Of a stretch of DNA of 49,370 nucleotides, positions 2,299 to 48,919 are shown in pieces (the first letter of the stretch is position 1; each line of letters starts with the position of its first letter). A model generated the notes under the pieces. That model searched no databases. It was not told the DNA's origin and saw only the letters and a list, made by a program, of their open reading frames with translations. The DNA lies in the IMG/VR virus record IMGVR_UViG_3300048909_000032; one strand, given 5' to 3'. This DNA is from a virus. The position numbers were made by a program, and so were the translations under genes.

Positions 2299-2840
2299 GG
2301 CTTCGTCTCGCCGGTATAGGTTCGCCACGGCACATTGCGGCCGCTGACCATGAAGCCCCAGTCGCCACGCCACTTGCTGGTGATGAACAGAGTGAATGCG
2401 CCTTCTGGCTGCACGTAGTCGATGCGGTGGTATTCGCCGAACGTCAGTGTCGCGGTATCGCCTGGGCGCCGAATGATCCGCACTCGTCGCGTTACCGACA
2501 GGGGTGATGCTGAGCCTTGGCGAATGGCTGGCCGCTCTTCGGTATACCCGCCGCGCAGGATGATGGTGCGCGCATTCCACGGGTGCGAGTGCAGGTCGCG
2601 GTCAGCATCCGGCCGCATGATGTGGTGAATTCGGATCGACCACGGGAACCACCAGAATTTCGCCTTGTGCGTCTCGCGGCTGTACGGGTTGAACAGCCAC
2701 CAGCGGCCCATGTACATGTCGGAACCGTCGGCGGACATGATGTGCTGGTACGGGGTGCGCTGGGCTCGGGCGATGAGCCAGTTGGCGATGGCTGGGCGGG
2801 CAAGCAGCTTGGCGAGCAGGCGCCAGAAGAGATTGATCAT
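2295..2840 (-). CDS. Hypothetical protein, 181 aa, His-rich motif HHIMRPDADRDLHSHPW
   Basis: ATG 2840 forms an ATGA overlap with the stop of the DUF2591-like gene. Hydrophobic N-terminus MINLFWRLLAKLLARPAIANWLIA. No family recognised. Confidence 0.6.
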   Translation of the reverse strand: MINLFWRLLAKLLARPAIANWLIARAQRTPYQHIMSADGSDMYMGRWWLFNPYSRETHKAKFWWFPWSIRIHHIMRPDADRDLHSHPWNARTIILRGGYTEERPAIRQGSASPLSVTRRVRIIRRPGDTATLTFGEYHRIDYVQPEGAFTLFITSKWRGDWGFMVSGRNVPWRTYTGETKP

Positions 2841-3196
2841 GATTTCACCAGTTCGGCAGGGACGCGCACGGTGTCGCCCAGCTTGTTGGCGACGATGGCG
2901 CGGCAGGCAGCAATGATCGGTGTTTCTGCATGCCATGCCGCCGTTGAATCTGTCCAAGCGCATGGGTTGCAGGCTTCATCGGAGTAGATGATGCTGACGC
3001 GATACCTAGCGATAAGCGGGCCGCACTGGTGCCAGTTGAACGATGGCATCCAAGGGGATTGCAGGCCAGGACACACGTTTATGCGCAACTCCTTGCCGAG
3101 AGAATCGTCAATCACGATTTCGCAGGCCAATGCCACTGCCCAATCCAGCGCCGGGCCAATCAGTTCAGCCGTCTTCACTTCGGTCGTCTTATCCAT
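2837..3196 (-). CDS. DUF2591 / NinX-like phage protein (paralogue of 19252..19641)
   Basis: ELIGPALDWAVA...NWHQCGPLI...IIAACRAIVANKLGDTVRVPAELV. The C-terminal CRAIV..KLGDTV.VPAELV is shared with the plus-strand paralogue. ATG 3196 in a TGATG overlap; the track start 3199 is GTG. Confidence 0.7.
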   Translation of the reverse strand: MDKTTEVKTAELIGPALDWAVALACEIVIDDSLGKELRINVCPGLQSPWMPSFNWHQCGPLIARYRVSIIYSDEACNPCAWTDSTAAWHAETPIIAACRAIVANKLGDTVRVPAELVKS

Positions 3197-3372
3197 CACT
3201 CACCCTCCTTCTGTGCCGCCCGGTACGCCCGGACGATCTTGTAAATAGCCGCCTTGCTCAACTTGAATCGCTTGGCGGCCTCGTCGGCGCTGTACGTCTG
3301 GTAGCACTCGATAATCTTGGCGTTGCGTGCTGCGTTCTTTCCCGGTTTCGGCCCGGACTTGTGCGTTTTCAT
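3196..3372 (-). CDS. Small HTH protein, 58 aa (below the ORF-track cutoff)
   Basis: Own translation MKTHKSGPKPGKNAARNAKIIECYQTYSADEAAKRFKLSKAAIYKIVRAYRAAQKEGE. ATG 3372 abuts the stop of the pentapeptide gene, and the stop overlaps the next start. Confidence 0.55.
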   Translation of the reverse strand: MKTHKSGPKPGKNAARNAKIIECYQTYSADEAAKRFKLSKAAIYKIVRAYRAAQKEGE

Positions 3373-4056
3373 TCAATCAGCCCCTTTCTCAGGCGCCTCG
3401 TACGGAACGGCAGGCGAGGCCTCAATGATGGTTTTAAGGATCGGTTTCCATATCGACCACCAGGCTGATGCGCGCGAATCCATTTCCTGAATCTCTTCTT
3501 CACTGAACGCCCACCACTCAGTCAGCGTGTGGAACTGGCAGCCGATCTGCATCTTGTCCGCTGTGTACGTCACCGGCCAGAGATCGCACTGCACAGACTT
3601 GATCTGCGACAGATTGCCGACAGCGCCCAAGATTGAAGCGGCGGAGCTCAGGTCGGCGTAGCGCAGGTCGGCGTAGCTCAGGTCGGCGTAGCGCAGGTCG
3701 GCGTAGCGCAGGTCGGCGGAGCGCAGGTTGGCGTAGCGCAGGTCGGCGTAGCGCAGGTCGGCGGAGCGCAGGTCGGCGGAGCGCAGGTCGGCGGAGCTCA
3801 GGTCGGCGGAGCGCAGGTCGGCGTAGCGCAGGTCGGCGGAGCGCAGGTCGGCGGAGCGCAGGTCGGCGGAGCGCAGGTCGGCGGAGCTCAGGTCGGCGGA
3901 GCGCAGGTCGGCGTAGCGCAGGTCGGCGGAGCGCAGGTTGGCGGAGCTCAGGTCGGCGGAGCGCAGGTTGGCCCGTTCGCCGCCCTCTTCGCTATTCAGC
4001 CACGTATGGTGCTTCTGAATGATTTCGGACAGTTGCTCAGTAGTGAAAGTTTTCAT
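3373..4056 (-). CDS. Pentapeptide-repeat protein with a non-repeat C-terminal domain
   Basis: 22 consecutive A(D/N)L(R/S)(S/Y) pentapeptides ([25 protein letters not shown]...) followed by a roughly 85-aa Trp-rich domain. SD ACGGAG lies upstream of ATG 4056. Confidence 0.9.
3641..3970. repeat. Tandem array of 22 near-identical 15-bp units encoding the pentapeptide repeats
   Basis: Units such as gcgcaggtcggcgga / gcgcaggtcggcgta / gctcaggtcggcgga / gcgcaggttggcgga repeat head to tail with only 1-3 variable positions. Confidence 0.9.
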
Positions 4057-4084: not shown

Positions 4085-4975
4085 TTAGAGCGCTGCTAGG
4101 GTCCGCTCGTACAGTTCGTCATGCTCGGCGGACATTGGCGATTCGGTCTGCTGGCTCTCGGTTACGGCCACGCCGCCCGACAGGAACCCGGTGACGATCG
4201 GCGCGATGGTCTTGGCCTGCGTCACCAGAAACAGGTGGCCGTCGTTGATGACGTGCAGCTGCGAGCGCGGAATCAGGTTGGCCATCATGCGCATGTTGAC
4301 CAGCGGAATCAGGGGATCATCGTTACCGGCCAGTACCAGCGTTGGCTGTTTGATCTTGTGCAGCCAGTGAGCGGAGGTCCACGCCCAAACGGCCATGGCC
4401 TGATAGTAGTAACCGCGACCGCTCGGCGATTTCATCTTGCTGGTGTGCGCGGTTGCCAGCGACTTGTCGTAACGGAAGGCGCCGCCGTAGATGTCCGGGG
4501 CGATGCGTGCGCCGTGCTCGGGGTCGGTGTAACGTCTTGGACTGGCCATCAGGCTGAGCACCTTGAGCGATGGCGGCACCATGGCCACACCGCAGGAGGT
4601 GGCAGCCAGAATCAGCCGTCTGCATCTGTGCGGCTGGTCATAGGCGAACTGCTGGGCCAGGAAACCGCCCCACGACACGCCGATCACATTCACTTGGTCA
4701 TAGCCCATCACATCCAGCATCGTGGCGACGGTCTTGGCCATGCCGCGAAAGGTGTACGGCAGCAGCGGAGCCGGCGAACCTCCGACACCGGGCACGTCGA
4801 AGGCGATGATCTCTTGGTCGGGGTCCAGCTCATTGGTGAACGGGATTACCAGATCCAGGCTGGCGCCGATACCGTTGAACACCACCAGCGGGGTCAGGTG
4901 CGATTTACCTGGGCGAACCGCCGTCCTGATTGACAACCCATCGACCTGTACAGTGCGGAAAACAAAAGCCTTCAT
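4085..4975 (-). CDS. phaZ: Alpha/beta hydrolase closely resembling Pseudomonas intracellular mcl-poly(3-hydroxyalkanoate) depolymerase PhaZ
   Basis: Near full-length resemblance recalled from Pseudomonas PhaZ: [42 protein letters not shown], lipase box [42 protein letters not shown]. Start set at ATG 4975 (GGAG 9 nt upstream); the track start 5026 is TTG. Confidence 0.85.
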
Positions 4976-4992
4976 TTCGTCGTGCTCCGGTT

Positions 4993-5010
4993 GGTCCTTA
5001 TTGATGGACT
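4993..5010 (-). promoter_or_regulatory. AGTCC-N8-GGAC operator copy just downstream of the candidate phaZ promoter -10
   Basis: The minus strand reads CATAGTGAGTCCATCAATAAGGACC. 15 of 18 positions match the late-promoter copy GAGTCCATGATTAAGGAC at 23807..23824. Confidence 0.55.
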
Positions 5011-5011
5011 C

Positions 5012-5040
5012 ACTATGCGCTGACAATCAGGTTAGGTCAA
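5012..5040 (-). promoter_or_regulatory. Candidate sigma70-type promoter of the phaZ-like moron
   Basis: Minus strand TTGACC (5040..5035), 17 nt, CATAGT (5017..5012). A second TTGAC lies just upstream. Confidence 0.4.
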
Positions 5041-5061
5041 CGAATAAGTCAACTATTCGGA

Positions 5062-5086
5062 CAAAAGGAACCCGGCGAACCGGGCT
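5062..5086 (-). terminator. Rho-independent terminator after gene 5091..5600
   Basis: Minus strand agcccggttcgccgggttcctttt: a 5-bp GC stem, tetraloop, then a T-rich tail. Confidence 0.6.
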
Positions 5087-5600: not shown

Positions 5601-5749
5601 CACTGATCCCTCTGGTATTTGGCCTGTCGCATCTTGGAGCAGGCCGAGTGGTTGCCGGATGCGCGGACCTTTCCGCACATATCGCAGGTGTTGCAGATGA
5701 CAAGGCGCGGCATTGGCGGGCGTGGGTTGCGGCGTCTGCGTGGGGTCAT
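5600..5749 (-). CDS. Small basic Cys-rich (zinc-ribbon-like) protein, 49 aa
   Basis: Own translation MTPRRRRNPRPPMPRLVICNTCDMCGKVRASGNHSACSKMRQAKYQRDQ. ATGA overlap with the MTase stop and TGATG overlap with the next start. Confidence 0.5.
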   Translation of the reverse strand: MTPRRRRNPRPPMPRLVICNTCDMCGKVRASGNHSACSKMRQAKYQRDQ

Positions 5750-6753
5750 TTGCTCAGTATTCCGAATGCTGCTGCTGCCACTCGCGGAACTTGTCCATTG
5801 CCAAGGGCTTTAATTCGGTCCACCCGGCTGGCCACCCCATTAGCCACTCGACCCATTCCGGGTTCAGCTGGCCACCGTCGGAAGCCATCACCGCGTGGTC
5901 CAGCCGGTCGTTCGATCTGTCCGCGCCGGACTTGCGTGTCAGTGCCGCCGGCGATGATCCTTTCGCCATGCTCGCCACGGGAGTCGGCCAAGTCCTGGCT
6001 GATACCGCCTCGATCAGAGTCCCGCCCTCGCGCCCCTTCCTTGGCGTTATCCGTCCGCCCTTGCTTCCCAGTGTTGCAGTTGGTGTCGGCCACAGTTTCG
6101 CTTCCGCAGAAAGCTTCGGCTCCCCTCGACTGTTCCACTTCCCCTGGGCGCGATTTGTCGCATCGTCCGCCACTGGCGTCTGCCATAGCTTCACCGCGCT
6201 GCTCAGACCCCATCCCGCATTCTTGCTTGAGCCCGGCTGATTGTGATTCCCGCAAACGGTTATCGTAGGCCACAACCCAGCAACGCTCGCGCTGATGGGG
6301 CGCTCCAAGGTCGGATGCTGAAACAATGCACCACTGCGCGTCATACCCCATTTCGGCAAGGTCACCGAGGACCATGGCAAGTCCTCTTCCCACAAGCAAA
6401 GGTGAGTTTTCCACGAAGACGACTTTAGGTCGTACCTCGCCGATGATTCGCGCCATTTCTCCCCAGAGTCCAGATCGGGCGCCGTCGATACCGAGGCCAT
6501 TCCCGGCAGCTGATATGTCCTGACACGGGAATCCGCCCGAAACCACGTCAACAAGGCCTCGCCATGGCTTTCCGTCAAAACTGCACACGTCAGACCAAAT
6601 TGGGAAAGTTTCGAGGATTCCATCGTTTTGTCGTTGCGCCAAAACCTGTGCTGCGTAGGCATCACGCTCAACGGCGCAGACGGTGCGCCATCCCAAGAGG
6701 TGGCCGCCGAGAATTCCGCCACCAGCGCCTGCGAAAAGAGCCAGCTCATTCAT
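5746..6753 (-). CDS. DNA (cytosine-5)-methyltransferase, frame A
   Basis: Motif I LFAGAGGG, motif IV GGFPCQDIS, motif VI FVENS, motif VIII APHQRERCW, C-terminal WPAEPGMGRVANGVASRVDRIKALGNGQVP (motif X). GGAGGA lies 5 nt upstream of ATG 6753. The middle roughly 140 aa is G/R/D/E/S-rich low complexity. Confidence 0.88.
   Translation of the reverse strand: MNELALFAGAGGGILGGHLLGWRTVCAVERDAYAAQVLAQRQNDGILETFPIWSDVCSFDGKPWRGLVDVVSGGFPCQDISAAGNGLGIDGARSGLWGEMARIIGEVRPKVVFVENSPLLVGRGLAMVLGDLAEMGYDAQWCIVSASDLGAPHQRERCWVVAYDNRLRESQSAGLKQECGMGSEQRGEAMADASGGRCDKSRPGEVEQSRGAEAFCGSETVADTNCNTGKQGRTDNAKEGARGRDSDRGGISQDLADSRGEHGERIIAGGTDTQVRRGQIERPAGPRGDGFRRWPAEPGMGRVANGVASRVDRIKALGNGQVPRVAAAAFGILSK
5754..6749 (-). 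CDS. Alternative-frame ORF (frame B, 331 codons) almost co-extensive with the MTase gene; carries TRD-like WPTP repeats and an LMGWPAGWT motif
   Basis: ATG 6749 is 4 nt downstream of the frame-A ATG and behind the same SD. Contains LWPTITV, LWQTPVADD, LWPTPTATLGSKGG, TWPTPVASMAKG and LNPEWVEWLMGWPAGWT. Third codon positions look more G/C-rich than in frame A by eye. Confidence 0.45.
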   Translation of the reverse strand: MSWLFSQALVAEFSAATSWDGAPSAPLSVMPTQHRFWRNDKTMESSKLSQFGLTCAVLTESHGEALLTWFRADSRVRTYQLPGMASVSTAPDLDSGEKWRESSARYDLKSSSWKTHLCLWEEDLPWSSVTLPKWGMTRSGALFQHPTLERPISASVAGLWPTITVCGNHNQPGSSKNAGWGLSSAVKLWQTPVADDATNRAQGKWNSRGEPKLSAEAKLWPTPTATLGSKGGRITPRKGREGGTLIEAVSARTWPTPVASMAKGSSPAALTRKSGADRSNDRLDHAVMASDGGQLNPEWVEWLMGWPAGWTELKPLAMDKFREWQQQHSEY

Positions 6754-7133
6754 GCATCCTCCAGGATATCCATCTGTTTCGTCTTGCACTCCCGCTCACC
6801 AATCGGCAGCGGTGCCAGCTGCGAGTCGCTCGGATTCTTCATCAGTTCCCGGCGCGATTCATTCTCGAACTTGTCGCGCAACGTTTTGCTGATCACGACT
6901 TTATGGCGCGGGGGTCGTAGGAACTCGACAAGCTCGGCGTCGGTCATGGCGTCCATCTTGAGGATGGCCAGCTGGATGACTTCGCTGATCTCTGGTGTGC
7001 TCGACCGATCACGGATTCGATCCATTGCCGCCTCGATGCCTGGCCGTACCTTATGTCGAAGTTCCTTTTCTGCGAGCTTGCCACGCTTGGCTGCGGCCTT
7101 CTGGCTGCGCTGCTGGGTTGTCATTGCGGTCAT
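6750..7133 (-). CDS. Hypothetical protein, 127 aa
   Basis: Track ORF. Its stop overlaps the MTase start (ATGA) and its start overlaps the upstream stop. Confidence 0.6.
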   Translation of the reverse strand: MTAMTTQQRSQKAAAKRGKLAEKELRHKVRPGIEAAMDRIRDRSSTPEISEVIQLAILKMDAMTDAELVEFLRPPRHKVVISKTLRDKFENESRRELMKNPSDSQLAPLPIGERECKTKQMDILEDA

Positions 7134-7489: not shown

Positions 7490-7975
7490 TCACTTCTTGA
7501 ATTCGATCCCGTAGGTGGCGATCAATCGTTTCGCCTTGTGATGGCCGATACCGATGTGGTTGGCGGCGAGGGTCTTTTTAATACCGACCCCGGCCAGCGC
7601 CTTGAGTCGTTCGGCCAGCTTGGCGTCCTCGACCGGATCGATAACACAGGAGCCCCGGCTCTCCGGGTTCTTCCCGGTGCCAGAAACGCACGTGATGCCA
7701 TTTTCCCGGCAAGTCCGGTTGATCCTGTCGAGCGACACGCCCAGGCGCATAACCATCTGCGTCTTGGTCATCGTCTCGCCCAGCTTCCTGACCTGCTCGA
7801 CGAAATCGCGCTGCGTTTGCTCTTCTGGCGTGACCACATGGCCATACCGCGGACGCCTTGGCTCGAACTTGGGTGGGGCCAAATGCTCGATCTGGCCGCC
7901 CGATGCGAAAAATGCAGCCTGTGCAGCGGCCAGCTCAGACCGGTCGCCCTGTCTGGTGTCGTTGTATTGGTTCAT
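7490..7975 (-). CDS. Hypothetical DNA-binding-like protein, tandem paralogue A
   Basis: Shares an ordered set of segments with 7977..8606: GG.IE.L..P.F.P, VEQV+KL.ETM...Q, D..LAER+KA. Confidence 0.65.
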   Translation of the reverse strand: MNQYNDTRQGDRSELAAAQAAFFASGGQIEHLAPPKFEPRRPRYGHVVTPEEQTQRDFVEQVRKLGETMTKTQMVMRLGVSLDRINRTCRENGITCVSGTGKNPESRGSCVIDPVEDAKLAERLKALAGVGIKKTLAANHIGIGHHKAKRLIATYGIEFKK

Positions 7976-7976
7976 G

Positions 7977-8606
7977 TCAGTGTGCTCGGGAGTTGAAAGT
8001 CGGCTGAGGGCCGCGACTGCATTTCGGATAGTCGATATTGAACTTGGCCAGGATTCGCAGGAATGGCTTAAAGGTGAGCCCGGACTTCTCCATGGCCTTG
8101 CTACGGGTAAGCCCGGCTTTCATGAAGGCCTTGATTCGCTCAGCCAGGTCGGCGTCATTCGCGCCATCGACACCACCACGCGTGTAGCCTGCTGGCTGGA
8201 ACTTGAAGCCGTATTCCTTTGCCATGGAGAACAAAGTCTTTCGCGACAGCCCGGTGCGCAGGATCGCCTGCGAGTAGCTCATGGTTTCGGCGAGCTTTTT
8301 GACCTGCTCAACAAGCTCTGCTCGAGCCCTTTCGGCAATTTCGGCTCGCTCTTCGCGTTCGATTTCGCGCAAGGTCATTTTTGTGACCTTTTCGGGTTCG
8401 GCTACAGCCTTGGGCGTCACTGGTTTGGCGGCCTTTCTGCGAGGCGGCGGTTCATGCCTCGCGGGTGGCGGCACGAAACTCGGCCCCTGCAACACCTCAA
8501 TAACCCCGCCCTTTCTCAAGAAATCCCGCTCAAGCATTGCGATCTCATAGCTCCTGGCCGCGTTCTCTTTGACCATGTTCAATTCGGTGCTGACGTATGC
8601 GCTCAT
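7977..8606 (-). CDS. Hypothetical DNA-binding-like protein, tandem paralogue B
   Basis: As above. 209 aa with a Pro/Lys-rich linker. Confidence 0.65.
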   Translation of the reverse strand: MSAYVSTELNMVKENAARSYEIAMLERDFLRKGGVIEVLQGPSFVPPPARHEPPPRRKAAKPVTPKAVAEPEKVTKMTLREIEREERAEIAERARAELVEQVKKLAETMSYSQAILRTGLSRKTLFSMAKEYGFKFQPAGYTRGGVDGANDADLAERIKAFMKAGLTRSKAMEKSGLTFKPFLRILAKFNIDYPKCSRGPQPTFNSRAH

Positions 8607-8627
8607 GGCGACCTCGCTTTCGGCCCC

Positions 8628-8655
8628 AAAAGAAAAGGGCGCTCTATTGGCGCCC
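8628..8655 (-). terminator. Rho-independent terminator after the exonuclease gene
   Basis: Minus strand gggcgccaatagagcgcccttttctttt: GGGCGC/GCGCCC stem then a T-run. Confidence 0.6.
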
Positions 8656-8674
8656 AGTTGGTTGGATTGGCTGA

Positions 8675-9355
8675 TTACTTCTTCAGCGCTTTGATCAGGT
8701 ACGGATCGACGTCGGCCTGGCCGAGTAGCCAGCGCTTATAGTCGGCAGGGATGTCGGCGATTTTCGATCCGGCGTGCTTGCCGAAGCGGATCACGGTCGG
8801 GATGCGTGCCTCTTCTGAGATTTCCCACAACCGTTCCCAGCTTCCCAGTTCCTGACCGGGCTCAAAATTCAGGCAATTAATGATCGCGATCAGCAGTCGG
8901 CGGCAGTTGTGCACGTCGTCGAGCGCAGCGTGAGCGTTCTTCAGCAGCTCTCGCGCCTGGTCCCGGTAGTGCAGGTAGATCATCGCCGATTGGCTGTGCG
9001 AGTCAGCATCCGGCCAGAGCGAACGGCTCAGCGCCTGGGTGCAGATGCGTTTCACGTCAGGCTGACCGATCACGCCCCAGTCATAGTCGACGTTGTGGCC
9101 GATGATGTAGGTGGTGCCGTCGGGAAGCGTGAAGTCCGTGTGAGGCGGACAGTCGACCAGATCCTCGTCGAGGATATGCGCGGTAGCCAAGGCGCCAAGC
9201 TCAATCGGCTTTGATGGTTTGTAGCGCTGAAGGAACTGCTCGGCGACCGTCAGCGTCTGGATGCTATCCAGTCGAAGCCATGCCGCCTCAGTTGGCTGCG
9301 GCTCTTTCAGGCCGGTTGTTTCGAAATCAAGAATAATTGCTGTCATGTAGGTCAT
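8675..9355 (-). CDS. DnaQ-like DEDDh 3-5 exonuclease (ExoX-like) with C-terminal KH.G..I.DIP.DY..W motif
   Basis: Exo I ILDFETTG, Exo II IIGHNVDYDW, Exo III HAALDDV; C-terminal FGKHAGSKIADIPADYKRWLL. Confidence 0.85.
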   Translation of the reverse strand: MTYMTAIILDFETTGLKEPQPTEAAWLRLDSIQTLTVAEQFLQRYKPSKPIELGALATAHILDEDLVDCPPHTDFTLPDGTTYIIGHNVDYDWGVIGQPDVKRICTQALSRSLWPDADSHSQSAMIYLHYRDQARELLKNAHAALDDVHNCRRLLIAIINCLNFEPGQELGSWERLWEISEEARIPTVIRFGKHAGSKIADIPADYKRWLLGQADVDPYLIKALKK

Positions 9356-9394: not shown

Positions 9395-9850
9395 CTAGAA
9401 CGGGATTTCTGGATCGTATTGCGAGTCATCAGGCTGCTGCGCTGATTGCTGGCTCCGTTGCTGCGATTGTTGACGCGACGCCGATTGCTGCTGGTCGCCA
9501 TCCTGCGGCTTGCCGCCGAGCAGCTGCATGGTGCCCTGCATGTCCACGATGATTTCCGTGGTGTAACGCTTGACCCCATCCTTCTCCCATTCACGGGTTT
9601 GTAGCTTGCCTTCGATGTACACCTGAGAGCCTTTACGCAGGTACTCCCCGGCAATCTCGGCGACCTTACCGAACAGACAGACCCTATGCCATTCGGTTTT
9701 TTCGACCTTCTGGCCGGTTTGCTTGTCGGTCCACTGTTCGCTGGTGGCCAGGCTCAGATTTGTTACTGCGTTGCCGTTGGGCATGTAGCGAACTTCAGGA
9801 TCCTGTCCGCATGTGCCGACCAAAATTACTTTATTGACGCCGCGTGCCAT
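9395..9850 (-). CDS. ssb: Single-stranded DNA-binding protein
   Basis: [40 protein letters not shown]...[32 protein letters not shown]-rich tail ending DPEIPF. Confidence 0.92.
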
Positions 9851-9899
9851 ATTTCTCTACCTCGATTTGATACCCCGGCACCGGCCGGGGCTTGATTGG

Positions 9900-10490
9900 T
9901 TATGCCGCTTGGCCCTGTGGTGCCAGTTCAGCCTTACGCTTGTCTTTTGCCTTGCCGAAGGTCTCGCCCATTTTCTTGTTGTTCGCGTCCTTCGCTGCTG
10001 CAAGGCCGGCGTCGAATGCATTTTTCAGCGACGCCATGTCCGGCGCCTTGGCGATGTCAGCAATCATGGCTGTCCAGTCGTACTGGTTCGTCGATTGCTG
10101 CCGGCTCTGCTGCTGAGCCCCTGTCGTCGAATCGAGTGCGTCGTGCTCGACGATTTCCAGCGCCGTCACATACAGGTAGCGCCGCTGGTAGGTCTCAACT
10201 GCGCCGATGTTCTGGACTTCGTGGCAGCCCTTGAGCGCCGCACTGCCCATCGGGCTGGTGAACTCGACAGACGTGCCGTCTTCCACGTCCACAACCTTCA
10301 GGGTGGCAAGCTCAACCCCGAACGAGACGATCCCGCACAGACCCTTCTCTTTGAAAAGGTCATTGATTGCCGGCAGGAAGTCGCCCAGCTCGAAGTAGCT
10401 GTAGCCAGCAAACTTGTTCTCGCCGGTCTTTTTCAGGGTCATGCGCTGCATTTCGCAGCGGGCTTCTTGGAGCTTTTTGTAGACGCTCAT
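9900..10490 (-). CDS. erf: ERF-family single-strand annealing protein
   Basis: MSVYKKLQEARCEMQRMTLKKTGENKFAGYSYFELGDFLPAINDLF...VETYQRRYLY. GAGGTG SD before ATG 10490; the track start 10520 is less likely. Confidence 0.8.
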   Translation of the reverse strand: MSVYKKLQEARCEMQRMTLKKTGENKFAGYSYFELGDFLPAINDLFKEKGLCGIVSFGVELATLKVVDVEDGTSVEFTSPMGSAALKGCHEVQNIGAVETYQRRYLYVTALEIVEHDALDSTTGAQQQSRQQSTNQYDWTAMIADIAKAPDMASLKNAFDAGLAAAKDANNKKMGETFGKAKDKRKAELAPQGQAA

Positions 10491-10498
10491 GGCGCACC

Positions 10499-10642
10499 TC
10501 AAATTGGTTGGTTGTCCCACTGGCGTTCAATCTTGATCGCCTCGTCTTCGTACTCTTTGCGGTCATCGCCCTGGAACTGCTCGGGGTCGAACGCGCCTAC
10601 CGTCATCCAGTCGAGCTGGGCGGTCAGTCGTGGTGTGTTCAT
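10499..10642 (-). CDS. Small acidic hypothetical protein, 47 aa
   Basis: ATG 10642 with GAGG 6 nt upstream, directly after the stop of 10650..11744. MNTPRLTAQLDWMTVGAFDPEQF... Confidence 0.4.
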   Translation of the reverse strand: MNTPRLTAQLDWMTVGAFDPEQFQGDDRKEYEDEAIKIERQWDNQPI

Positions 10643-10649
10643 GGGCGCC

Positions 10650-11744
10650 TCAGAAGTTGATGGTGATGTTCGGCACTTCACCGCGGTAGATTTTCAGAAC
10701 GAGCGCCTTGGCCAGTTCTTCGGTGACGTTCATCGACATGATTGCCAGCTTCGCCTCGCCCATGATTTTCGACTTGTGCGCCGTATCGGCTGCGCGGGCG
10801 TTCTGCTGGCGGACAATCTCGGCGGCGGCATCGTCTGCGCGCTTCTGCTCATCCAGACGCGCCTGCTCGACTGCCTGCTCTTGCCGGGTTGCAGCCTCCT
10901 TGCGCTCACGTTCGGCGCGCTGCTCGGCCTCTTCCTGGTCGCGCTTTGCCTGCTCAGCCTTGCGCTCAGACTCGGCCGCAGCCAGCTTCAGGTCGTTCTC
11001 GCGCTTGGCTGCTGCCGCCTGCTCGTCCTTCACCCGCTGCGCTTCTGCATCCCGCTCGCGCTGCGCCTTCTGTTCCGCCTCGATGCGCGCCTTCTCGGCA
11101 GCCTCGTGGGCGATTCGTTGCTCGCGGTCTTTCTGCTCCTGCGCCTCTTTCTCGGCGCGCAGCCTGATCAGTTCGGCCTGTTCCGACTCGTACTGCTCCT
11201 GGTCGGCCAGGGCCTTGCGCAGAATCACCAAGGCGGCAGCCTTTGCCCGGTGCGCGTCGGCCTCGAACTCTTCCAGCTCCTGGTTGATCTCCAGACTGTC
11301 CAGGTCCTGGACCTTGGCGCCGATCAGTGCCGCGGTCATGCCGGCGGTGTCGGTGTTTTCGATGTGCGCGATCACGGCCTTGTGCGCAGCGACCCGGGCT
11401 TCCTCTTTCTCCTCCCACTCATTCAGTGGGCGGCGAACCTGCTCCTGCAGCGACTCCAGGGTTTCGCGCATTCGCTTGCGCTCGGCGTCGATCAGCTTCG
11501 GGACTTCCTTCAGCTCGGCGACCAGCTTTTTGCCGGCGTCGTCCAGGGCCACTTTCGACTTCGCGACCTTGTGGGCGATCGAGGCGATGGCGGCGCGACC
11601 CTTGGCGGTGCTGGTGTCCGGCACGAACGACATAACCTCGTCGCGGATCTTTTGTAGCCATGGCTCCAGGCCGTTCGGCGCGCTGTACACGGCCAGCGCT
11701 GTTTCTTTCGGTGGCACGGTGGCCAATTCAGTAGTTGCAGACAT
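10650..11744 (-). CDS. Coiled-coil phage protein, DUF1351-like, typical partner of ERF/SSB modules
   Basis: 364 aa. The N-terminal TELATVPPKETALAVYS and the long E/A/K/R/Q coiled coil resemble DUF1351 proteins. Position is upstream of erf. Confidence 0.5.
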   Translation of the reverse strand: MSATTELATVPPKETALAVYSAPNGLEPWLQKIRDEVMSFVPDTSTAKGRAAIASIAHKVAKSKVALDDAGKKLVAELKEVPKLIDAERKRMRETLESLQEQVRRPLNEWEEKEEARVAAHKAVIAHIENTDTAGMTAALIGAKVQDLDSLEINQELEEFEADAHRAKAAALVILRKALADQEQYESEQAELIRLRAEKEAQEQKDREQRIAHEAAEKARIEAEQKAQRERDAEAQRVKDEQAAAAKRENDLKLAAAESERKAEQAKRDQEEAEQRAERERKEAATRQEQAVEQARLDEQKRADDAAAEIVRQQNARAADTAHKSKIMGEAKLAIMSMNVTEELAKALVLKIYRGEVPNITINF

Positions 11745-19109: not shown

Positions 19110-19255
19110 ACCTCCTAGTCATGTCCAGCACTGGCCGTATGCAGTCCTCTTGGCTGAAGGTCAACCTGATCCGTATCGGCTTGTGGCGCCCTCAGATCTG
19201 CGATGACGCTACGTCGGATGGTCCGCACTGCAAGATTCGTTGGGGGATGAAATGA
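19106..19255 (+). CDS. Micro-ORF, 49 aa
   Basis: ATGA overlaps at both ends. MNLLVMSSTGRMQSSWLKVNLIRIGLWRPQICDD... Confidence 0.4.
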   Translation: MNLLVMSSTGRMQSSWLKVNLIRIGLWRPQICDDATSDGPHCKIRWGMK

Positions 19256-19641
19256 TGAGTCAGATGATCGAAGTGAATACCGCCGAACTAACCGGGCAGG
19301 CGCTGAATTTTGCCGTAGCAATCTCAGACGGCTGGTCGTGGGATGGCCAGAAAGGCTATGACGGCTATATGGCGGCAGCTTGGCTTTCCAAGGATGGCAC
19401 GAGAGAGCAATTTCAGAATTTTCGGTATTCATGCAGCTGGCACTTGGTCGGACAATTGATCGAGAAGTACCGCCTGGCATGGCAGTACCTTGAAGAGGAT
19501 GAGATTGAGGCGTGGGTTTTGGGAAAGTCAAAATCAACCGGCATGATTGGCGGCACCCAGATCATTGCTTCATGCCGAGCAATCGTGAAGCTAAAGCTCG
19601 GCGACACCGTTAAAGTCCCTGCCGAACTGGTGACGCCATGA
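19252..19641 (+). CDS. DUF2591 / NinX-like protein (paralogue of 2837..3196)
   Basis: ELTGQALNFAVA...SCSWHLVGQLIEKY...IIASCRAIVKLKLGDTVKVPAELV. Confidence 0.7.
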   Translation: MMSQMIEVNTAELTGQALNFAVAISDGWSWDGQKGYDGYMAAAWLSKDGTREQFQNFRYSCSWHLVGQLIEKYRLAWQYLEEDEIEAWVLGKSKSTGMIGGTQIIASCRAIVKLKLGDTVKVPAELVTP

Positions 19642-22973: not shown

Positions 22974-23179
22974 GCAAGTGGGTGGCGCGGGTCCGCTGCA
23001 AATGCGGCCATGCATATTCAGGGGAAATATTCAGTGCATCTGACTTTCGGATAATCCAAGTATGCCCAACCTGCGGGAGCAAGAAGGAATGGCGCGACAC
23101 GGTAGAGCGCTGGGTATCAACCTCGAAGTGGAATAGTCCGCGCACATGGGGTACTGGCTACTGGGAGGTTAAGGCATGA
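22970..23179 (+). CDS. Small zinc-ribbon protein, 69 aa
   Basis: MSKWVARVRCKCGHAY...VCPTCGSKKEW. ATGA overlaps. Confidence 0.5.
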   Translation: MSKWVARVRCKCGHAYSGEIFSASDFRIIQVCPTCGSKKEWRDTVERWVSTSKWNSPRTWGTGYWEVKA

Positions 23180-23715
23180 AATATCTAAACATCGTCACAG
23201 CAGTGGTCCGGGCACTATCGACCGACAACATGGGCGGCGGCATGAACTTCGAGCCTCGGGTGCAGGACACCAAGCTCAAGGGGGAGATCACTGGCAAGGA
23301 TGACCAGCTGCTGCACGACAGTATGATCCGGGCTCGCCTGCATGCCACGCTGGCCCCGGAACACTGGGAGATCCTGAAGGCCAAGTTCTCGCCGGACCTG
23401 AACCACAAGCGCGAATCCATTCGGGCGGTGCGTACCCGAGTGAAGACGCCTGCGCCGGAACGGTTCAGGGATGCTGCGGTGCTGACCTGGGCCATGCCGA
23501 AACTGCCGGGGAAGGATGGGAAGCGCTCAGCTACCACGCTGCCGGCCGAATGGTACGAAACTGATCGCTGGTGTGACGATCCTGTGCCAGAGAGAACCAA
23601 GCAGCGCTGGAGGCGTGACATTTCCATCGGGTTGGAGGCGGAAGTGAACAAGGCGCTAGCCATTGCTCAGGAAGCGCTGGAGCCGCTGGGAATCTTCCGC
23701 GAACAGGTAGCGTGA
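23176..23715 (+). CDS. Hypothetical protein; a late-gene regulator (Q-like) candidate by position only
   Basis: It is the last gene before the late promoter-leader-terminator and lysis genes. No motif recognised. Confidence 0.55.
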   Translation: MKYLNIVTAVVRALSTDNMGGGMNFEPRVQDTKLKGEITGKDDQLLHDSMIRARLHATLAPEHWEILKAKFSPDLNHKRESIRAVRTRVKTPAPERFRDAAVLTWAMPKLPGKDGKRSATTLPAEWYETDRWCDDPVPERTKQRWRRDISIGLEAEVNKALAIAQEALEPLGIFREQVA

Positions 23716-23776
23716 TAAATATATTTACTGGCCCATTGCCAAGACTGGCGCTGTGGCGTATCGTATTGTCATCCTG

Positions 23777-23825
23777 TTGCAATTGCGTTCAGGGCTTGAA
23801 TATATAGAGTCCATGATTAAGGACT
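23777..23825 (+). promoter_or_regulatory. Candidate late promoter (TTGCAA-N17/18-TATATA) with an AGTCC-N8-GGACT operator at the start site
   Basis: ttgcaa ttgcgttcagggcttga atatata g agtcc atgattaa ggact. Confidence 0.45.
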
Positions 23826-24082
23826 GCGAGTTTCAACCAGCGGCCAGAGTTGCCCGACTAGTTCCCTCCTTCGAGTCGGGGTATCTGGATACGGTTTAGC
23901 CGGTTCGTACCGTAACATCGCAAAACACCGGCAGCCTGCGAGCCCTACTAACGCTTACTCAGGGGGTTGTGCAGGCGGGAGGAAGGGGAAGACCTTCACG
24001 AATCAACCAACGCCGCCGACCGACTCGGCAAATCGCGGAGATGCACCGCATTGAGTCAGCCCGCAGATGCGGAATTAATTCT

Positions 24083-24159
24083 GGCGAGTTCCACTGTCTG
24101 GTGATGTGGCAAGGCTCATAACCTTGATCAGGTCGGTTCGATCCCGACACTCGCTACCA
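24083..24159 (+). tRNA. tRNA with anticodon CAU (Met or Ile2), 77 nt, CCA encoded
   Basis: Hand fold: acceptor GGCGAGU/ACUCGCU (G1-U72), D arm CACU-gucugguga-UGUG, anticodon arm CAAGG-CUCAUAA-CCUUG, variable AUCAG, T arm GUCGG-UUCGAUC-CCGAC, then ACCA. Confidence 0.8.
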
Positions 24160-24167
24160 ATTCCAAG

Positions 24168-24193
24168 GCCTCGCCATCGTGCGGGGCTTTTTC
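24168..24193 (+). terminator. Rho-independent terminator directly after the tRNA
   Basis: gcctcgc-catcgt-gcggggc then ttttt. Confidence 0.65.
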
Positions 24194-24299
24194 AATTTCG
24201 GCACCCACGCAACCGTCCTTGCCCCGAGCGGACGCGATATGCGCGGAGTGCCGGACCTATTTCCGCTCCAATCATGGGGCATTCACCGGATGCTCAATC

Positions 24300-25860: not shown

Positions 25861-27273
25861 ATGGCCGAGTCAAAACCGCGAATTCAAGTCCAAGATGGAA
25901 AGATTGTCTCGACTGATAGCCTGTCCAACCTGGTCGCCAACATCGGAACCGGTCGCGACAAGCGCACGCACAACAGCTTCGGTTATGAATACGTCAACCA
26001 GATGGAGCTGGAAGCGGCCTATCAGTCCAACTGGATCGCCCGTCGCATTGTCGACAAGCCGAACGAAGACGCACTGCGTGAGTGGCGCACCTTCAACGGC
26101 AAGCAGGCCAAGCTGATCGAGACTGAAGAGCGCCGCCTGGGTGTGCAGCAACACTACCTCGACACCTGCTGCTGGGCCGACCTGTACGGTGGCGCAGCCC
26201 TGCTGATGGTGACTGACCAGGATCTGGGCAAGCAGCTTGACCTGAAGAAGATCAAGAAGGGCAGCCTGAAGAACCTGGTGGTCCTCGATCGCTGGGACAT
26301 CCAGCCGACCGACTTCAACCTGACCGACCCGCTCCAGCCGAACTGGATGCAGCCGAACTACTACATGATGGTCAACGGCACGCAGCCGATCCACTACAGC
26401 CACATCATCCGCCGCACCGGGGCTCGCCTGCCTCGGCGCATGCGCATGTTCGAACAGGGCTGGGGTGACAGTCGCCTACGCCGCTGCATGTCTGACCTGC
26501 GCGACGTGGTGGCCACCAAGGGCGGTATTGCCTCTCTGGTGCTGGAAGCCAACGTCGACACGATCGGTGTGAAGGGTCTTCAAGCAGCCTTGGCCAGTGC
26601 GCAGAGCAATCAGGTCACCGAGCGTTACCGCCTGTTCGGCATGCTCAAGTCGATCGTGAACCTCGGCCTGCTCGATCAGGATAACGAGAAATACGAACGC
26701 AACAGCATCAGCTTCAGCGGCCTCAGCCAGATCATGGAGCAGTTCATGGTGTGGACGGCGGGCGCTGCTGAAATGCCGGTGACCGAACTGTGGGGCCAAT
26801 CGGCTGCTGGGCTCAGTGCTACTGGCGAAGGCGACCGCAAGACCTACGAAGGCACGATCAAGGGTAAGCAGGACGGCCAGATGCGTCTGGACCTCGAACT
26901 GCTTGACCAGGTGCTGATCCGCTCGGCGCTGGGCAACTACCCGGAAGGTATCGAGTTCGAGTGGAATCCGCTGTCGCTGCCAACCGGTGTCGAGCAGGCT
27001 CAGGAAGGTCTGGCCGATGCGCAGGCCGATGGCATCTACCTCGAAACCGGGGTGATTCGCCCAAGCCATGCCATGCGCCGCGCTCAGGGTAAAGGAACCT
27101 ACGCCATCACCGACGAGCAGATCGCCGCCCAAGAGAAGCTGGAGAAGGATCAGGACAATGCAGCCTTCGACAAAGACGACGGCGCCGACCTCCCCGGTTT
27201 CTCCCTCGGCGGCCCTGACGGCGATAAACCAGACGCTCCTGGCAAAACGAAAGACGAAACCCAAGGCGCCTAA
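25861..27273 (+). CDS. Portal protein
   Basis: 470 aa, first gene of the morphogenesis block, followed by a Mu-F/SPP1-gp7-like gene. Acidic C-terminus. Resembles DUF1073-type portals from memory. Confidence 0.8.
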   Translation: MAESKPRIQVQDGKIVSTDSLSNLVANIGTGRDKRTHNSFGYEYVNQMELEAAYQSNWIARRIVDKPNEDALREWRTFNGKQAKLIETEERRLGVQQHYLDTCCWADLYGGAALLMVTDQDLGKQLDLKKIKKGSLKNLVVLDRWDIQPTDFNLTDPLQPNWMQPNYYMMVNGTQPIHYSHIIRRTGARLPRRMRMFEQGWGDSRLRRCMSDLRDVVATKGGIASLVLEANVDTIGVKGLQAALASAQSNQVTERYRLFGMLKSIVNLGLLDQDNEKYERNSISFSGLSQIMEQFMVWTAGAAEMPVTELWGQSAAGLSATGEGDRKTYEGTIKGKQDGQMRLDLELLDQVLIRSALGNYPEGIEFEWNPLSLPTGVEQAQEGLADAQADGIYLETGVIRPSHAMRRAQGKGTYAITDEQIAAQEKLEKDQDNAAFDKDDGADLPGFSLGGPDGDKPDAPGKTKDETQGA

Positions 27274-43121: not shown

Positions 43122-43571
43122 ATGGAAAGGCCAAAGAAGCGTCGTTTCACTGACAAAATGGAGGCGTTCTGTCTCGCCTACATGGAGACGGGCAACGCTT
43201 CCGAGTCCTACCGCCGCACCTACAATGTCGCCAACATGGCCGAGAAGAGCATGCAGCGCGAGGGCTGGAACCTGTTTCAACGGCCGCAGGTGCAGGAGCG
43301 GCTGGCTGAGCTAAGGGAAAAGGTCATGGACAGGCATAACATCACCGTCGATACGCTGCTGGCCGAACTGGAAGAGGCACGCCAGAAGGCCATGAATGCC
43401 GAGACACCTCAAGCCTCGGCCGCCGTCTCGGCCACCATGGGCAAGGCCAAGCTGCTAGGCCTGGACAAGAAGATTGTCGAAATCACCGGCAAGAACGGCG
43501 GCGACATCAAGACCAGTTCCACCGTGACCGTGTCCGAGAAGGTCATGAACTCCATCATTGATCGCCTATGA
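43122..43571 (+). CDS. terS: Terminase small subunit (P27/Terminase_2-like)
   Basis: MEAFCLAYMETGNASESYRRTYNVANMAEKSMQREGWNLFQRPQVQERLAELRE. ATG 43122. Confidence 0.7.
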   Translation: MERPKKRRFTDKMEAFCLAYMETGNASESYRRTYNVANMAEKSMQREGWNLFQRPQVQERLAELREKVMDRHNITVDTLLAELEEARQKAMNAETPQASAAVSATMGKAKLLGLDKKIVEITGKNGGDIKTSSTVTVSEKVMNSIIDRL

Positions 43572-45178
43572 GCGCCCTGCTCGATTGGGACTCAATGGAT
43601 GACGCGGAAAAGCAGGCGGTCAAGATTATTGGCGAGCATTCGCCGCTGTCCTTCATGCGCGTCTTTTTCCAGTTGAACCAGGGCATGAAGATGCTCTGCA
43701 ACTGGCACCACCGCTACATGGATCACACCGCGCTCAAGGTATTGTCGGGCGAGCTGAAGAACGTCGTGTTCAACATGCCGCCGGGCGGTACCAAGACCGA
43801 ATACTGGTCGATTCACCTGCCCGCCTACGCCATGACCGTGCTCGACCGGACGCGCACGCTCAACGTCTCCTACTCGAAATCCCTGGTCGAGGAAAACTCG
43901 AACCGCATCAAGTCGATTATCACCAGCGACGAATACCAAGGCCTATGGCCGTGCGCGCTGGGTAAGGCTGACGTGGCCAACTGGGTCGTTACCGATGATC
44001 GCGGGCGTAACAAGCACCAGATCTTCAGCCGCTCCACTGGCGGGCAGATCACCGGTGTACGTGGCGGCTATATCTCCGAAGGCTTCACCGGGTTCATCAA
44101 CCTGGACGACCCGGAGAAGGCCGACAGCGCTTTCAGCGCGACCATGCGGGCCAAGGCGCAGCGAATCGTCACCAACACCCTGCGCAGCCGTAGGGCGTCT
44201 CCGGATACGCCGGTCATCTGCACCCAGCAGCGCCTGCACACGGATGACGTGTCGGGCTTTCTGCTCAAGGGTGGCATGGGGCTGGACTTCGCGCACATCA
44301 AGGTGCCGGCGCTGGTCACGCGCGAGTACATCGCCAGCCTGCCGGATGAGATCCGCGAACACGCCGAGCGGGACGTTTTTAGCAGTCCATCAATCGTCCG
44401 TGGCGGTGTCGAATACTGGTCCTACTGGCCCGCCAAGGAAACCGTTGCCGACCTGATGGCGCTGTGGGATCGCGACCCGTACACGATGGTCAGCCAGTAC
44501 CAGCAGGAGCCGGTGGCGCTGACGGGCGGCATGATCGATGCCGACTGGTTCAAGACCTATCAGCAACTGCCTTTTCTGGTTTGGCGCGGCGTGTACGTCG
44601 ACACCGCGCAGAAGACCGGCGAGCAGCACGACTACTCGGTCTTCAGTCATTGCGGCCTGGGCGTCGACGGCAACCTGTACATCATCGAGATCCACCGCGG
44701 CAAGTACGACGCGGGCGACCTTGAGACGACCGCCCTGCGCCTATGGCAGCAATGGAAGACCTGGGACCAATACCGCCCGGCCGCCCTGCGTTACATGCGC
44801 GTCGAGGACAAGTCGAGCGGCACCGGCCTGATTCAGACCATCAGCAAAAAGGGCTCGATTCCGATCGAGGCGCAGCCACGTGGTCCGGCGGCCAACAAGG
44901 TCACGCGCTGCATGGATGCCGTGCCATGGTTCAAGTCGGGTCGGGTATTCGTCCCAGCCATCTACGACGACCAAGGCCGCAAGCTGGAGCACGTCAAGGA
45001 TCATCGTGGCGAGATCGTCGCCTCGACGGACTGGGTCACGCCCTTTCTCACCGAGGCTTCGGCCTTCACCGCCGACGACAGCCACGACTTCGACGATCAG
45101 GTCGACACCATCTTCGACGCGGTGGCCGACATGCTGATCAGCAATAACGGCGAATTCTTCTCCGGCAACTGGCTGTAA
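43568..45178 (+). CDS. terL: Terminase large subunit
   Basis: 536 aa. Walker-A-like NMPPGGTKT, then a DD-containing segment GFINLDDPEK, and a C-terminal acidic nuclease-like region. ATGA-coupled to terS. Confidence 0.85.
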   Translation: MSALLDWDSMDDAEKQAVKIIGEHSPLSFMRVFFQLNQGMKMLCNWHHRYMDHTALKVLSGELKNVVFNMPPGGTKTEYWSIHLPAYAMTVLDRTRTLNVSYSKSLVEENSNRIKSIITSDEYQGLWPCALGKADVANWVVTDDRGRNKHQIFSRSTGGQITGVRGGYISEGFTGFINLDDPEKADSAFSATMRAKAQRIVTNTLRSRRASPDTPVICTQQRLHTDDVSGFLLKGGMGLDFAHIKVPALVTREYIASLPDEIREHAERDVFSSPSIVRGGVEYWSYWPAKETVADLMALWDRDPYTMVSQYQQEPVALTGGMIDADWFKTYQQLPFLVWRGVYVDTAQKTGEQHDYSVFSHCGLGVDGNLYIIEIHRGKYDAGDLETTALRLWQQWKTWDQYRPAALRYMRVEDKSSGTGLIQTISKKGSIPIEAQPRGPAANKVTRCMDAVPWFKSGRVFVPAIYDDQGRKLEHVKDHRGEIVASTDWVTPFLTEASAFTADDSHDFDDQVDTIFDAVADMLISNNGEFFSGNWL

Positions 45179-48433: not shown

Positions 48434-48919
48434 TTATTGATTCAGCTCCTTGACCTTGTCGATGGCATTATTCCATCCTTCTGCGTAGGCAACTTCATCA
48501 ATGTTCGTGTTGTATAACTCAGTTTCCGGAACATGCTCGCGCTCAGGCAGCACCACCGATACCGGCGCTGGCGGCACACGGAAAAGCGGAACAAGGCAGC
48601 CTCCGTGTCGATTCTGAGTTTCGAGCAGATCGGTGATTTGGAAGTCCAGCGAGCTTCCGCCGACTGAGCCATCAAGGAGCCAGGCCGTCGGCTCAACCAT
48701 CCCGAGCAGTTCCTCGACATGCCCCGCTTCCTGAGCGAGAACGGCGCGCTCGTTCCACTTCTCAATCATTTTCTGAGAGAGCCAATCACGGCCTTTATGC
48801 ATCCAGCGCTGCTGACGCCCCGAGTGGCAGCTCGAACATTTTGTCTCCAGTCCGTCTGCTCGGTATTGCTTGAGGACTGGCTCTCCACCACAAAATGGAC
48901 ACGGTTTCAATTCACTCAT
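48434..48919 (-). CDS. Protein with N-terminal Lar-family (restriction alleviation) zinc ribbon
   Basis: MSELKPCPFCGGEPVLKQ.......KCSSC matches the Lar family start (L.PCPFCGG). The C-terminal 100 aa is unassigned. Confidence 0.55.
   Translation of the reverse strand: MSELKPCPFCGGEPVLKQYRADGLETKCSSCHSGRQQRWMHKGRDWLSQKMIEKWNERAVLAQEAGHVEELLGMVEPTAWLLDGSVGGSSLDFQITDLLETQNRHGGCLVPLFRVPPAPVSVVLPEREHVPETELYNTNIDEVAYAEGWNNAIDKVKELNQ

Follow-up and report, generated by a model that had tools for sequence, protein, structure and literature searches.

A putative PhaZ-type medium-chain-length polyhydroxyalkanoate depolymerase encoded by a tailed phage and its phage-borne relatives

Introduction

Pseudomonads store carbon and energy mainly as polyhydroxyalkanoate (PHA), which is also an industrial bioplastic. 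The PHA depolymerase PhaZ of Pseudomonas putida is bound to the storage granule and releases (R)-3-hydroxyalkanoic acids, which are converted to CoA esters and enter β-oxidation. The virus record IMGVR_UViG_3300048909_000032 of IMG/VR, a stretch of 49,370 nucleotides referred to here as the window, contains an open reading frame (ORF) of 296 amino acids, designated here as phaZ. A first-pass annotation had likened its product to the PhaZ that acts on medium-chain-length (mcl) PHA in Pseudomonas, and had described the gene as a self-contained moron wired into phage regulation. The locus raises the question of whether a phage encodes a true depolymerase of its host's storage polymer, whether such a gene was recently taken from the host, and what it would do for the phage.

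The enzyme family is well known, and the phage-specific clade described below had not previously been analyzed in the searchable literature. On PHA depolymerases in phages or as auxiliary metabolic genes (AMGs), that literature yielded only two items, and no paper was found on a phage-specific mcl-PhaZ clade, its breadth, or a functional test. The first is a list entry, in which ORF269 of RP12 and ORF266 of RP31, both Ralstonia jumbo phages, are named "poly(3-hydroxyalkanoate) depolymerase" without analysis (PMC5468394). The second is a report on Gloeobacter in which a polyhydroxybutyrate (PHB) depolymerase in a cyanobacterial prophage, represented by a single viral operational taxonomic unit, was proposed as an AMG for carbon utilization. 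The window gene and the Gloeobacter candidate share the idea of a virus-carried depolymerase for the host polyester reserve; the latter is a PHB depolymerase and, in the available part of the report, is presented without clade-level, selection, or context analysis.

Family Assignment and Predicted Structure of PhaZ

The ATG at 4975 is the right start of phaZ because all the close homologues begin with the same residues, MKAFVFRT; the longer ORF from TTG-5026 is not needed. The protein matched TIGR02240, the NCBIfam equivalog for poly(3-hydroxyalkanoate) depolymerase, with 408.7 bits (E 1e-122; profile positions 2–264 of 276), against an equivalog cutoff of 250.6 bits. The runner-up family, the PcaD-type enol-lactonases, scored 112 bits, which is under its own cutoff. 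The Pfam match was Abhydrolase_1, and the PHROG match was 789, labeled just "esterase/lipase." Identity was 63% over 90% of the length to the P. putida PHA depolymerase Q8KQ22 (P0112) and 64% to that of P. aeruginosa (P0079). The likeness to the PhaZ proteins of P. putida KT2442/KT2440 and P. aeruginosa (63–64% over ∼90%) includes the GxSWG elbow, the positions of the Asp and His residues, a similar length, and a cytoplasmic location. Judged by its sequence, the window gene is a genuine member of the PhaZ family and not a generic α/β hydrolase, and the resemblance noted in the first-pass annotation was thus borne out.

All three motifs pointed out in that annotation were found, i.e., the lipase box G99-V-S101-W-G103, the Asp motif N-D219-D220-P-L-I-P, and the His motif D-G246-H247-L-F. 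Ser101, Asp220, and His247 were invariant across 125 aligned homologues and occupied the same columns, with an offset of 1, as the triad of P. putida PhaZ (P0112), which we take to be S102/D221/H248.

Structural modeling with AlphaFold2 (AF2) predicted an α/β-hydrolase core with a helical cap at residues 137–197 [predicted local distance difference test (pLDDT) 90.3; predicted template modeling score (pTM) 0.89]. The C-terminus was modeled as a low-confidence linker followed by a terminal helix (283–295); this segment, residues ∼267–296, was found only in the lineage of the window and the related phage locus L009 and sets it apart from chromosomal PhaZ. The nearest solved structures were the esterases 8v16 and 6eb3, with TM-scores of 0.77–0.79 by query length and 0.85 by target length at 28% identity (0.79 and 0.85 for 8v16). 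A search of the PDB for an mcl-PhaZ structure returned none, and a fold search of BFVD gave just generic giant-virus α/β hydrolases. No N-terminal signal-like segment was visible in the protein sequence, and no membrane segment was apparent.

Distribution, Phylogeny, and Selection of the Phage Copies

The ends of the window are identical over 127 nt (1–127 = 49244–49370); the assembly therefore closes into a circle of 49,243 bp and represents a complete tailed-phage genome. The size of the overlap suggests assembly with a k-mer of 127. Structural genes for a portal, head-morphogenesis protein, protease, major head protein, sheath, tape measure, baseplate hub and wedge, tail fibers, and TerL were present, along with a holin and an endolysin for lysis. 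The host is almost certainly Pseudomonas, to judge from the genome sequence, because the nucleotide matches of the window were to Pseudomonas phages and relatives of its portal (76–85% identity) sit in genomes of P. fontis, P. proteolytica, P. rhodesiae, P. lactis, and other Pseudomonas.

The same phaZ (97–100% amino acid identity) was found at the same place in five independent IMG/VR contigs from other samples, and more distant members of the phage family (L009, L011, and L012) also have the gene. Beyond the window's own lineage, the best homologues showed 64–75% identity, and 10 out of 10 contexts sampled outside the chromosomal clade were phage-like. The phage backbones were diverse: a 90-kb myovirus with phaZ antisense within the tail/baseplate module; phages of more than 116 kb that encode nicotinamide adenine dinucleotide (NAD) salvage along with RNase T, Band_7, and Ro60; an RdgC-encoding phage of 86 kb; a contig of 105 kb where phaZ adjoins a dihydrofolate reductase (DHFR) gene; a contig of 95 kb that has an intein, RtcB, and GIY-YIG; jumbo-phage-like contigs of 222 kb and up to 308 kb; and a lambdoid element (P0077) that encodes lambda-P, ParA/ParG, and a holin. 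A profile-guided scan placed family members on at least 53 IMG/VR contigs of 5–307 kb. A gene of this kind on a phage is hence less unusual than the first-pass annotation supposed, and an annotated copy exists in RP12/RP31.

The RP12/RP31 homologue (47.7% identity), labeled "esterase/lipase" in RefSeq, was the only strong match among 50,697 deposited phage records. It is likewise a phage-encoded member of TIGR02240 (291 bits) with the same triad. It differs from the window protein in its overall sequence (48% identity), in bearing chromosomal-type residues at three of the six signature positions given below, in forming a long-branch outgroup, and in belonging to a phiKZ-like jumbo phage of another host genus.

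One copy of the L009 type, WP_461999339.1 (72% identical to that of the window), was located in an integrated prophage of the 6.67-Mb chromosome of Pseudomonas sp. LB3P58 (JBUBVE010000001.1). There, phaZ directly follows a diversity-generating retroelement (bAvd and reverse transcriptase) and lies a few kilobases before an AlpA-type gene and host genes. This copy surfaced through a cluster look-up; when GTDB genomes were searched with phaZ peptide patterns, no prophage copy turned up. Both the L009-type phages and this prophage have phaZ immediately downstream of the retroelement, which consists of bAvd, a reverse transcriptase (RVT_1), and Lcl_C-type target-like genes (L112, 5085–15840), and the 4-kb retroelement/phaZ block of L009 is 91% identical in nucleotides to that of LB3P58.

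Two other placements may be described. In the ∼90-kb myovirus (L002/L003/L004, ∼8001–8846), an antisense island made up of the phaZ homologue, three small upstream ORFs, and a downstream ORF of 226 amino acids lies between tail-tube-initiator/baseplate genes and other tail genes, which is a second, independent moron-like placement. In L013 and L015 (52-kb and 116-kb contigs), phaZ lies amid host-takeover and metabolic genes, namely, RNase T, Band_7, Ro60/TROVE with vWA, metallophosphatase, and RNase H; NAPRTase and a phosphoribosyl pyrophosphate (PRPP)-synthetase-like protein were seen in L013 only.

Chromosomal phaZ belongs to the phaC1-phaZ-phaC2-phaD operon. The window copy differs in having no phaC, phaD, or phasin genes as neighbors. 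PhaC was absent from the window and from the 164 fetched loci (∼3–10 kb on each side of each phaZ homologue) except L019. The canonical layout was seen only at P0042 (67% identity), the first homologue lying in a phaC1-phaZ-phaC2-phaD-phaFI cluster, and the nearest chromosomal relatives were at most 67% identical, with synonymous divergence (dS) saturated. Neighbor-joining analysis separated 54 chromosomal-type sequences, among them every homologue source-named Pseudomonas, Halopseudomonas, or Zestomonas, from 71 others that included all 13 phage-verified copies and RP12, with 100/100 bootstrap support. Only this unrooted split is relied on; RP12 as the outgroup makes the phage sequences look paraphyletic to the chromosomal clade. 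Six positions were fixed differently between the two sides, the phage group having S39, F105, P135, M181, Y191, and V196. Against TIGR02240, nine other phage copies scored 291–474 bits in comparison with 588–620 bits for chromosomal PhaZ, the window copy being ∼200 bits lower.

The ratio of nonsynonymous to synonymous divergence (dN/dS) of phaZ was 0.056–0.068 against close relatives at dS 0.35, 0.13–0.15 within the L009 group, and 0.049 between L013 and L015. These values (0.05–0.15) point to strong purifying selection within phage lineages. The GC content of phaZ (61.6%, against 59.1% for the genome) is not deviant. Recent capture from a host was ruled out, given the phage-borne closest relatives, the 100/100 split, the low identity to chromosomal copies, and the saturated dS. 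The first-pass description of the gene as a homologue of the host enzyme is hence right as to family, and the host transfer that it implied gives way to a picture in which the window phaZ appears as one member of a diversified, phage-borne clade.

The same observations bear on the notion that phaZ is a mere passenger, i.e., host DNA captured recently without a role in the phage, or that the contig is chimeric or a misclassified piece of chromosome. The contig is metagenome-derived, and PhaZ is otherwise a typical chromosomal gene. Against this stand the circular closure with a full set of phage genes, the recurrence of the gene, with its position unchanged, in five or more independent contigs of other samples, the purifying selection, the deep separation from chromosomal PhaZ, and the lack of phaC, phaD, or phasin genes nearby. 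The notion is considered effectively refuted.

Accessory Status and Genetic Organization of phaZ

At least six syntenic relatives (L025, L028, L029, L035, L036, and L041) do not have phaZ in the following 5–7 kb. They share with the window homologues of g10650, the exonuclease (absent from L041), g7490, and g6750 at 40–89% amino acid identity, and some also share Erf and SSB. Because of these relatives, phaZ is regarded as accessory in this phage group. It occupies the distal end of the early arm, which runs leftward. The sequence shared with the phaZ-bearing relatives has a sharp edge, lying exactly at the upstream gene's stop codon and immediately ahead of a terminator-like hairpin (Table 1), and the relatives have other genes in place of the 195-amino-acid ORF and the C5 DNA methyltransferase gene of the window. 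The methyltransferase gene is ∼80% identical in nucleotides to genes of Salmonella, Klebsiella, Acinetobacter, and P. aeruginosa phages and is a second mobile accessory gene beside the phaZ cassette.

Table 1. Coordinates of phaZ, its upstream elements, and other features of the window.
Feature	Position	Strand	Remarks
phaZ-like coding sequence, 296 amino acids	4085..4975	−	ATG at 4975; profile match, homologues, AF2 model
GGAG ribosome-binding site	4988..4985	−	9 nt before ATG; read from sequence
Ser101 codon	4675..4673	−	catalytic
Asp220 codon	4318..4316	−	catalytic
His247 codon	4237..4235	−	catalytic
18-mer GAGTCCATCAATAAGGAC with GTCC...GGAC inverted arms	5011..4994	−	immediately 3′ of the −10 hexamer; invariant in relatives
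σ70-like promoter candidate TTGACC-N17-CATAGT	5040..5012	−	consensus match 9/12
Intrinsic-terminator-like hairpin AGCCCGG-UUCG-CCGGGUU with U-rich tail	5061..5086	−	directly after the stop codon of the upstream gene
Second 18-mer copy GAGTCCATGATTAAGGAC	23807..23824	+	16/18 positions match GAGTCCATCAATAAGGAC
Pentapeptide-repeat protein gene	3373..4056	−	co-oriented; starts 28 nt after the phaZ stop codon
Upstream ORF, 195 amino acids	5091..5678	−	function not known; only the first ∼29 codons common to relatives; variable flank
C5 DNA methyltransferase	5746..6789	−	absent from the closest phaZ-bearing relatives
Small invertase-type serine recombinase, 206 amino acids	1212..1832	−	across the circular junction from the tail-fiber/endolysin end
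Lar-like ORF	48434..48919	−	on the opposite strand

In lambdoid morons of the type described by Hendrix, a unit of promoter, gene, and terminator is inserted between conserved genes. phaZ resembles them in being present in some syntenic relatives and absent from others, in the abrupt edge of homology, in having its own promoter-like site, and in its place at the end of an operon. Unlike in those morons, the terminator-like hairpin of phaZ lies upstream, none lies downstream, more genes follow, and the composition is not deviant. On the phaZ strand, no terminator-like site was found from 4085 down to position 1. The gene that follows, coding for a pentapeptide-repeat protein, is linked to phaZ in all the close relatives and is probably co-transcribed with it. 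Because no terminator-like site lies downstream and a co-oriented gene begins so soon after it, phaZ would head a multi-gene unit, and the view of a self-contained unit had to be given up.

The pentapeptide/decapeptide-repeat protein is encoded by a 15-nt tandem array of 22 registers with repeats at 3564–4043. Its gene varies among the relatives in sequence and length (75–83% amino acid identity) far more than phaZ does (97–98%). Weaker homologues (34–44% amino acid identity) adjoin distant homologues of g10650 in L043, L044, L046, and L047. Linkage between phaZ and a pentapeptide-repeat gene was sought outside the window's own lineage and was not found.

Upstream Cassette and Its Late-Region Counterpart

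The terminator, the TTGACC-N17-CATAGT promoter, and the nearly identical operator copy listed in the first-pass annotation are all present as sequences. The stem-loop of the hairpin (5086..5069) has seven pairs and a UUCG loop (−11.3 kcal/mol), is followed by the U-rich tail UUCCUUUUGU, and forms the left boundary of a conserved cassette. Both hexamers of the promoter candidate were invariant in five related contigs, and the spacer varied. Counts of promoter-like and terminator-like sites in the region were no higher than in shuffled sequences, and ∼0.2 matches to the 18-mer with two or fewer mismatches would be expected anywhere in the window by chance (unbiased estimate). Owing to these figures, consensus matching by itself is weak evidence, and conservation is the stronger evidence for the cassette. 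The 111-nt intergenic cassette showed just 7 and 10 differences from two relatives, for which the proportion of synonymous differences (pS) in phaZ was 0.28. The −35 and −10 hexamers and the 18-mer had 0/30 differences from these relatives, the changes being confined to the spacer and to the stretches between elements. The hairpin, promoter candidate, and leader are under constraint, being far better conserved than the synonymous sites of phaZ. The L009-type copies do not have the cassette and show another short upstream region instead.

The second copy of the 18-mer, GAGTCCATGATTAAGGAC, is intergenic. It lies after the gene at 23176..23715 and before a tRNA-Met gene, a strong hairpin, and the holin gene, i.e., at the start of the presumed late operon. 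The order 3′ of it is tRNA-Met (24083..24159), a hairpin with a U-run (24165..24190, −15.2 kcal/mol), the holin (24219), spanin-like ORFs, and the portal. The region 23720–24220 (+) resembles PR′-tR′ of lambda in having promoter-like sites, the 18-mer, tRNA-Met, and a hairpin with a U-run before the holin. The gene at 23176..23715 (phrog_3412, function not known) sits where lambda has Q, a place expected for an antiterminator or late activator. There are two late-promoter candidates, TTGCCA-N17-TATCGT at 23736..23764 and TTGCAA-N18-TATATA abutting the 18-mer.

The second copy was kept in both relatives whose late region was retrieved. The 18-mer and the late intergenic region were not conserved in more distant portal-related loci of Pseudomonas genomes. 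When IMG/VR was searched for the 18-mer, 52 matches came back, which is about the rough chance estimate, and the relevant ones lay only in the window's own lineage. Because of the chance-level matches and the absence from portal-related loci, an "operator" cannot be generalized. The first-pass proposal that phaZ is wired to the late promoter has a single 16/18 match behind it, and the identity of the late promoter is ambiguous. A regulatory site shared between the phaZ leader and the late region is plausible.

Proposed Role of the Phage Depolymerase

phaZ is a host-type metabolic gene with viral genes on both sides and under purifying selection, which are marks of an AMG. The reading to which we assign a probability of roughly 0.6 is that the phage keeps it as such a gene and that it encodes a catalytically competent, cytoplasmic, PhaZ-type mcl-PHA depolymerase. 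In an infected Pseudomonas cell that accumulates PHA, the enzyme would attach to the PHA granules of the host and hydrolyze the polyester to (R)-3-hydroxyalkanoic acids. The acyl-CoA synthetase and β-oxidation pathway of the host would then convert these to acetyl-CoA, reducing power, and ATP for phage replication. The benefit would be greatest in cells that are nutrient-limited or imbalanced, PHA-loaded, or starved. The hairpin, the promoter-like site of the gene, and the conserved leader could decouple its expression from early read-through, and the 18-mer common to the start of the late region may place phaZ under joint control with late genes.

Several points weigh against this proposal. 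The phage clade scores ∼150–200 bits below the chromosomal enzymes on the family model, and fixed substitutions lie near the nucleophile helix (A105F) and in the cap (G135P, W191Y, and G196V). Ralstonia solanacearum, the host of RP12 and RP31, makes short-chain PHB and not mcl-PHA. Phage yield is not usually considered to be limited by carbon and energy. The depolymerase function of the phage copies is itself predicted, and hosts of most of the metagenomic contigs are unassigned. The promoter, terminator, and operator are called from consensus and conservation only.

The lower family scores and the fixed substitutions make a shift of substrate possible. In that case, a PhaZ-derived esterase would now act on another ester, e.g., envelope lipids to aid lysis, as LysB of mycobacteriophages does, acyl-homoserine lactones (AHLs), or another host metabolite. 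The unspecific PHROG label, the PHB-type host of RP12/RP31, all six clade-specific substitutions, and structural neighbors that include general esterases, a membrane phospholipase A, and an AHL-degrading esterase would fit such a shift. Nonetheless, all the phage copies pass the equivalog cutoff over their whole length, including the cap, and are 60–67% identical to authentic PhaZ. Moreover, phaZ lies outside the lysis cassette (holin at 24219 with spanin-like ORFs; endolysin at 47666), and its product has no apparent signal peptide or membrane segment. A changed substrate is considered rather unlikely.

A different account retains the biochemistry of the depolymerase proposal and differs just in when the benefit arises. 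By lysogenic conversion, the enzyme would act mainly in lysogens, expressed from its own promoter with the rest of the prophage silent, and a second PhaZ would speed PHA turnover and aid survival of starvation or stress. The arrangement of terminator and own promoter is typical of morons expressed from prophages, the LB3P58 copy lies near one end of an integrated prophage, and P0077 belongs to a lambdoid element bearing ParA/ParG. The early region of the window encodes repressor-like and antirepressor-like proteins, and six loci of the portal relatives were on Pseudomonas contigs of 59–439 kb, which, to judge from contig size, is consistent with prophages. However, no integrase was found among the window ORFs of at least 300 amino acids, and the sole recombinase found was the invertase-type serine recombinase of 206 amino acids; lysogenic conversion is uncertain for the window genome for want of an integrase. 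Many carriers also look like large lytic or jumbo phages (NAD salvage, thymidylate synthase, DHFR, RtcB, and Ro60) for which lysogeny is unlikely, and the 18-mer is common to the late region, not to the immunity region. As the main role of phaZ, lysogenic conversion is judged unlikely. Action of the depolymerase during the lytic cycle is favored because the gene is widespread in presumably lytic and jumbo phages.

A broader proposal can be put forward tentatively, at somewhat less than even odds. The phage mcl-PHA depolymerases may constitute a distinct, old clade exchanged horizontally among Pseudomonas-type phages of every lifestyle (lambdoid/temperate, presumably lytic of ∼90–120 kb, and jumbo). 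They would represent an unrecognized class of AMG that liquidates PHA granules and thereby lets phages multiply productively when cells are starved or nutrient-imbalanced, with the PHA status of the cell helping to determine how infections turn out in Pseudomonas of soil, rhizosphere, and wastewater. If phages routinely carry a depolymerase, mobilization of storage polymers would join photosynthesis, nucleotide metabolism, and sulfur metabolism among the host functions reprogrammed by phages. This would explain, by a concrete and testable mechanism, how starved cells can be infected productively, and would provide a testable link between the carbon-storage state of the host and phage success. 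Prophage copies of phaZ, as in LB3P58, could alter PHA yields in production strains as well as carbon turnover in the environment, and biotechnology could readily draw on the phage clade for diverged mcl-PHA depolymerases. The conserved leader together with the late-region 18-mer offers a small, tractable regulatory element.

Additional Features of the Genome

A near-identity search of deposited phages revealed no close relative of the genome; the best match, an unannotated "Bacteriophage sp." record, reached ∼77% across the structural half. The early region is organized in lambdoid style, with Erf, SSB, exonuclease, O-like and DnaC-like replication proteins, NinB, NinX-like, and HNH proteins. 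A Mor-like helix-turn-helix (HTH) protein of 58 amino acids is encoded at 3196..3372. The TerL gene (43568..45178 +) is not adjoining the portal gene (25861..27273 +) but lies ∼17 kb from it, past the baseplate and tail-fiber genes. Directly upstream of the portal are the lysis genes (holin and spanin-like ORFs). Two long antisense ORFs, 7554..8741 and 9813..11657, were rejected as high-GC artifacts that overlap genes with strong PHROG matches.

Two NinX-like paralogues (phrog_4389, PF10765) are present in opposite orientation at 2837..3199 (−) and 19240..19641 (+) and explain the long inverted repeats I2 and I6 (48 nt, 83% complementary). Another pair of paralogues, both phrog_9129 and of unknown function, are neighbors at 7490..7975 (−) and 7977..8606 (−) and contain a 70-nt direct repeat with 70% identity; the relatives have one version or the other.

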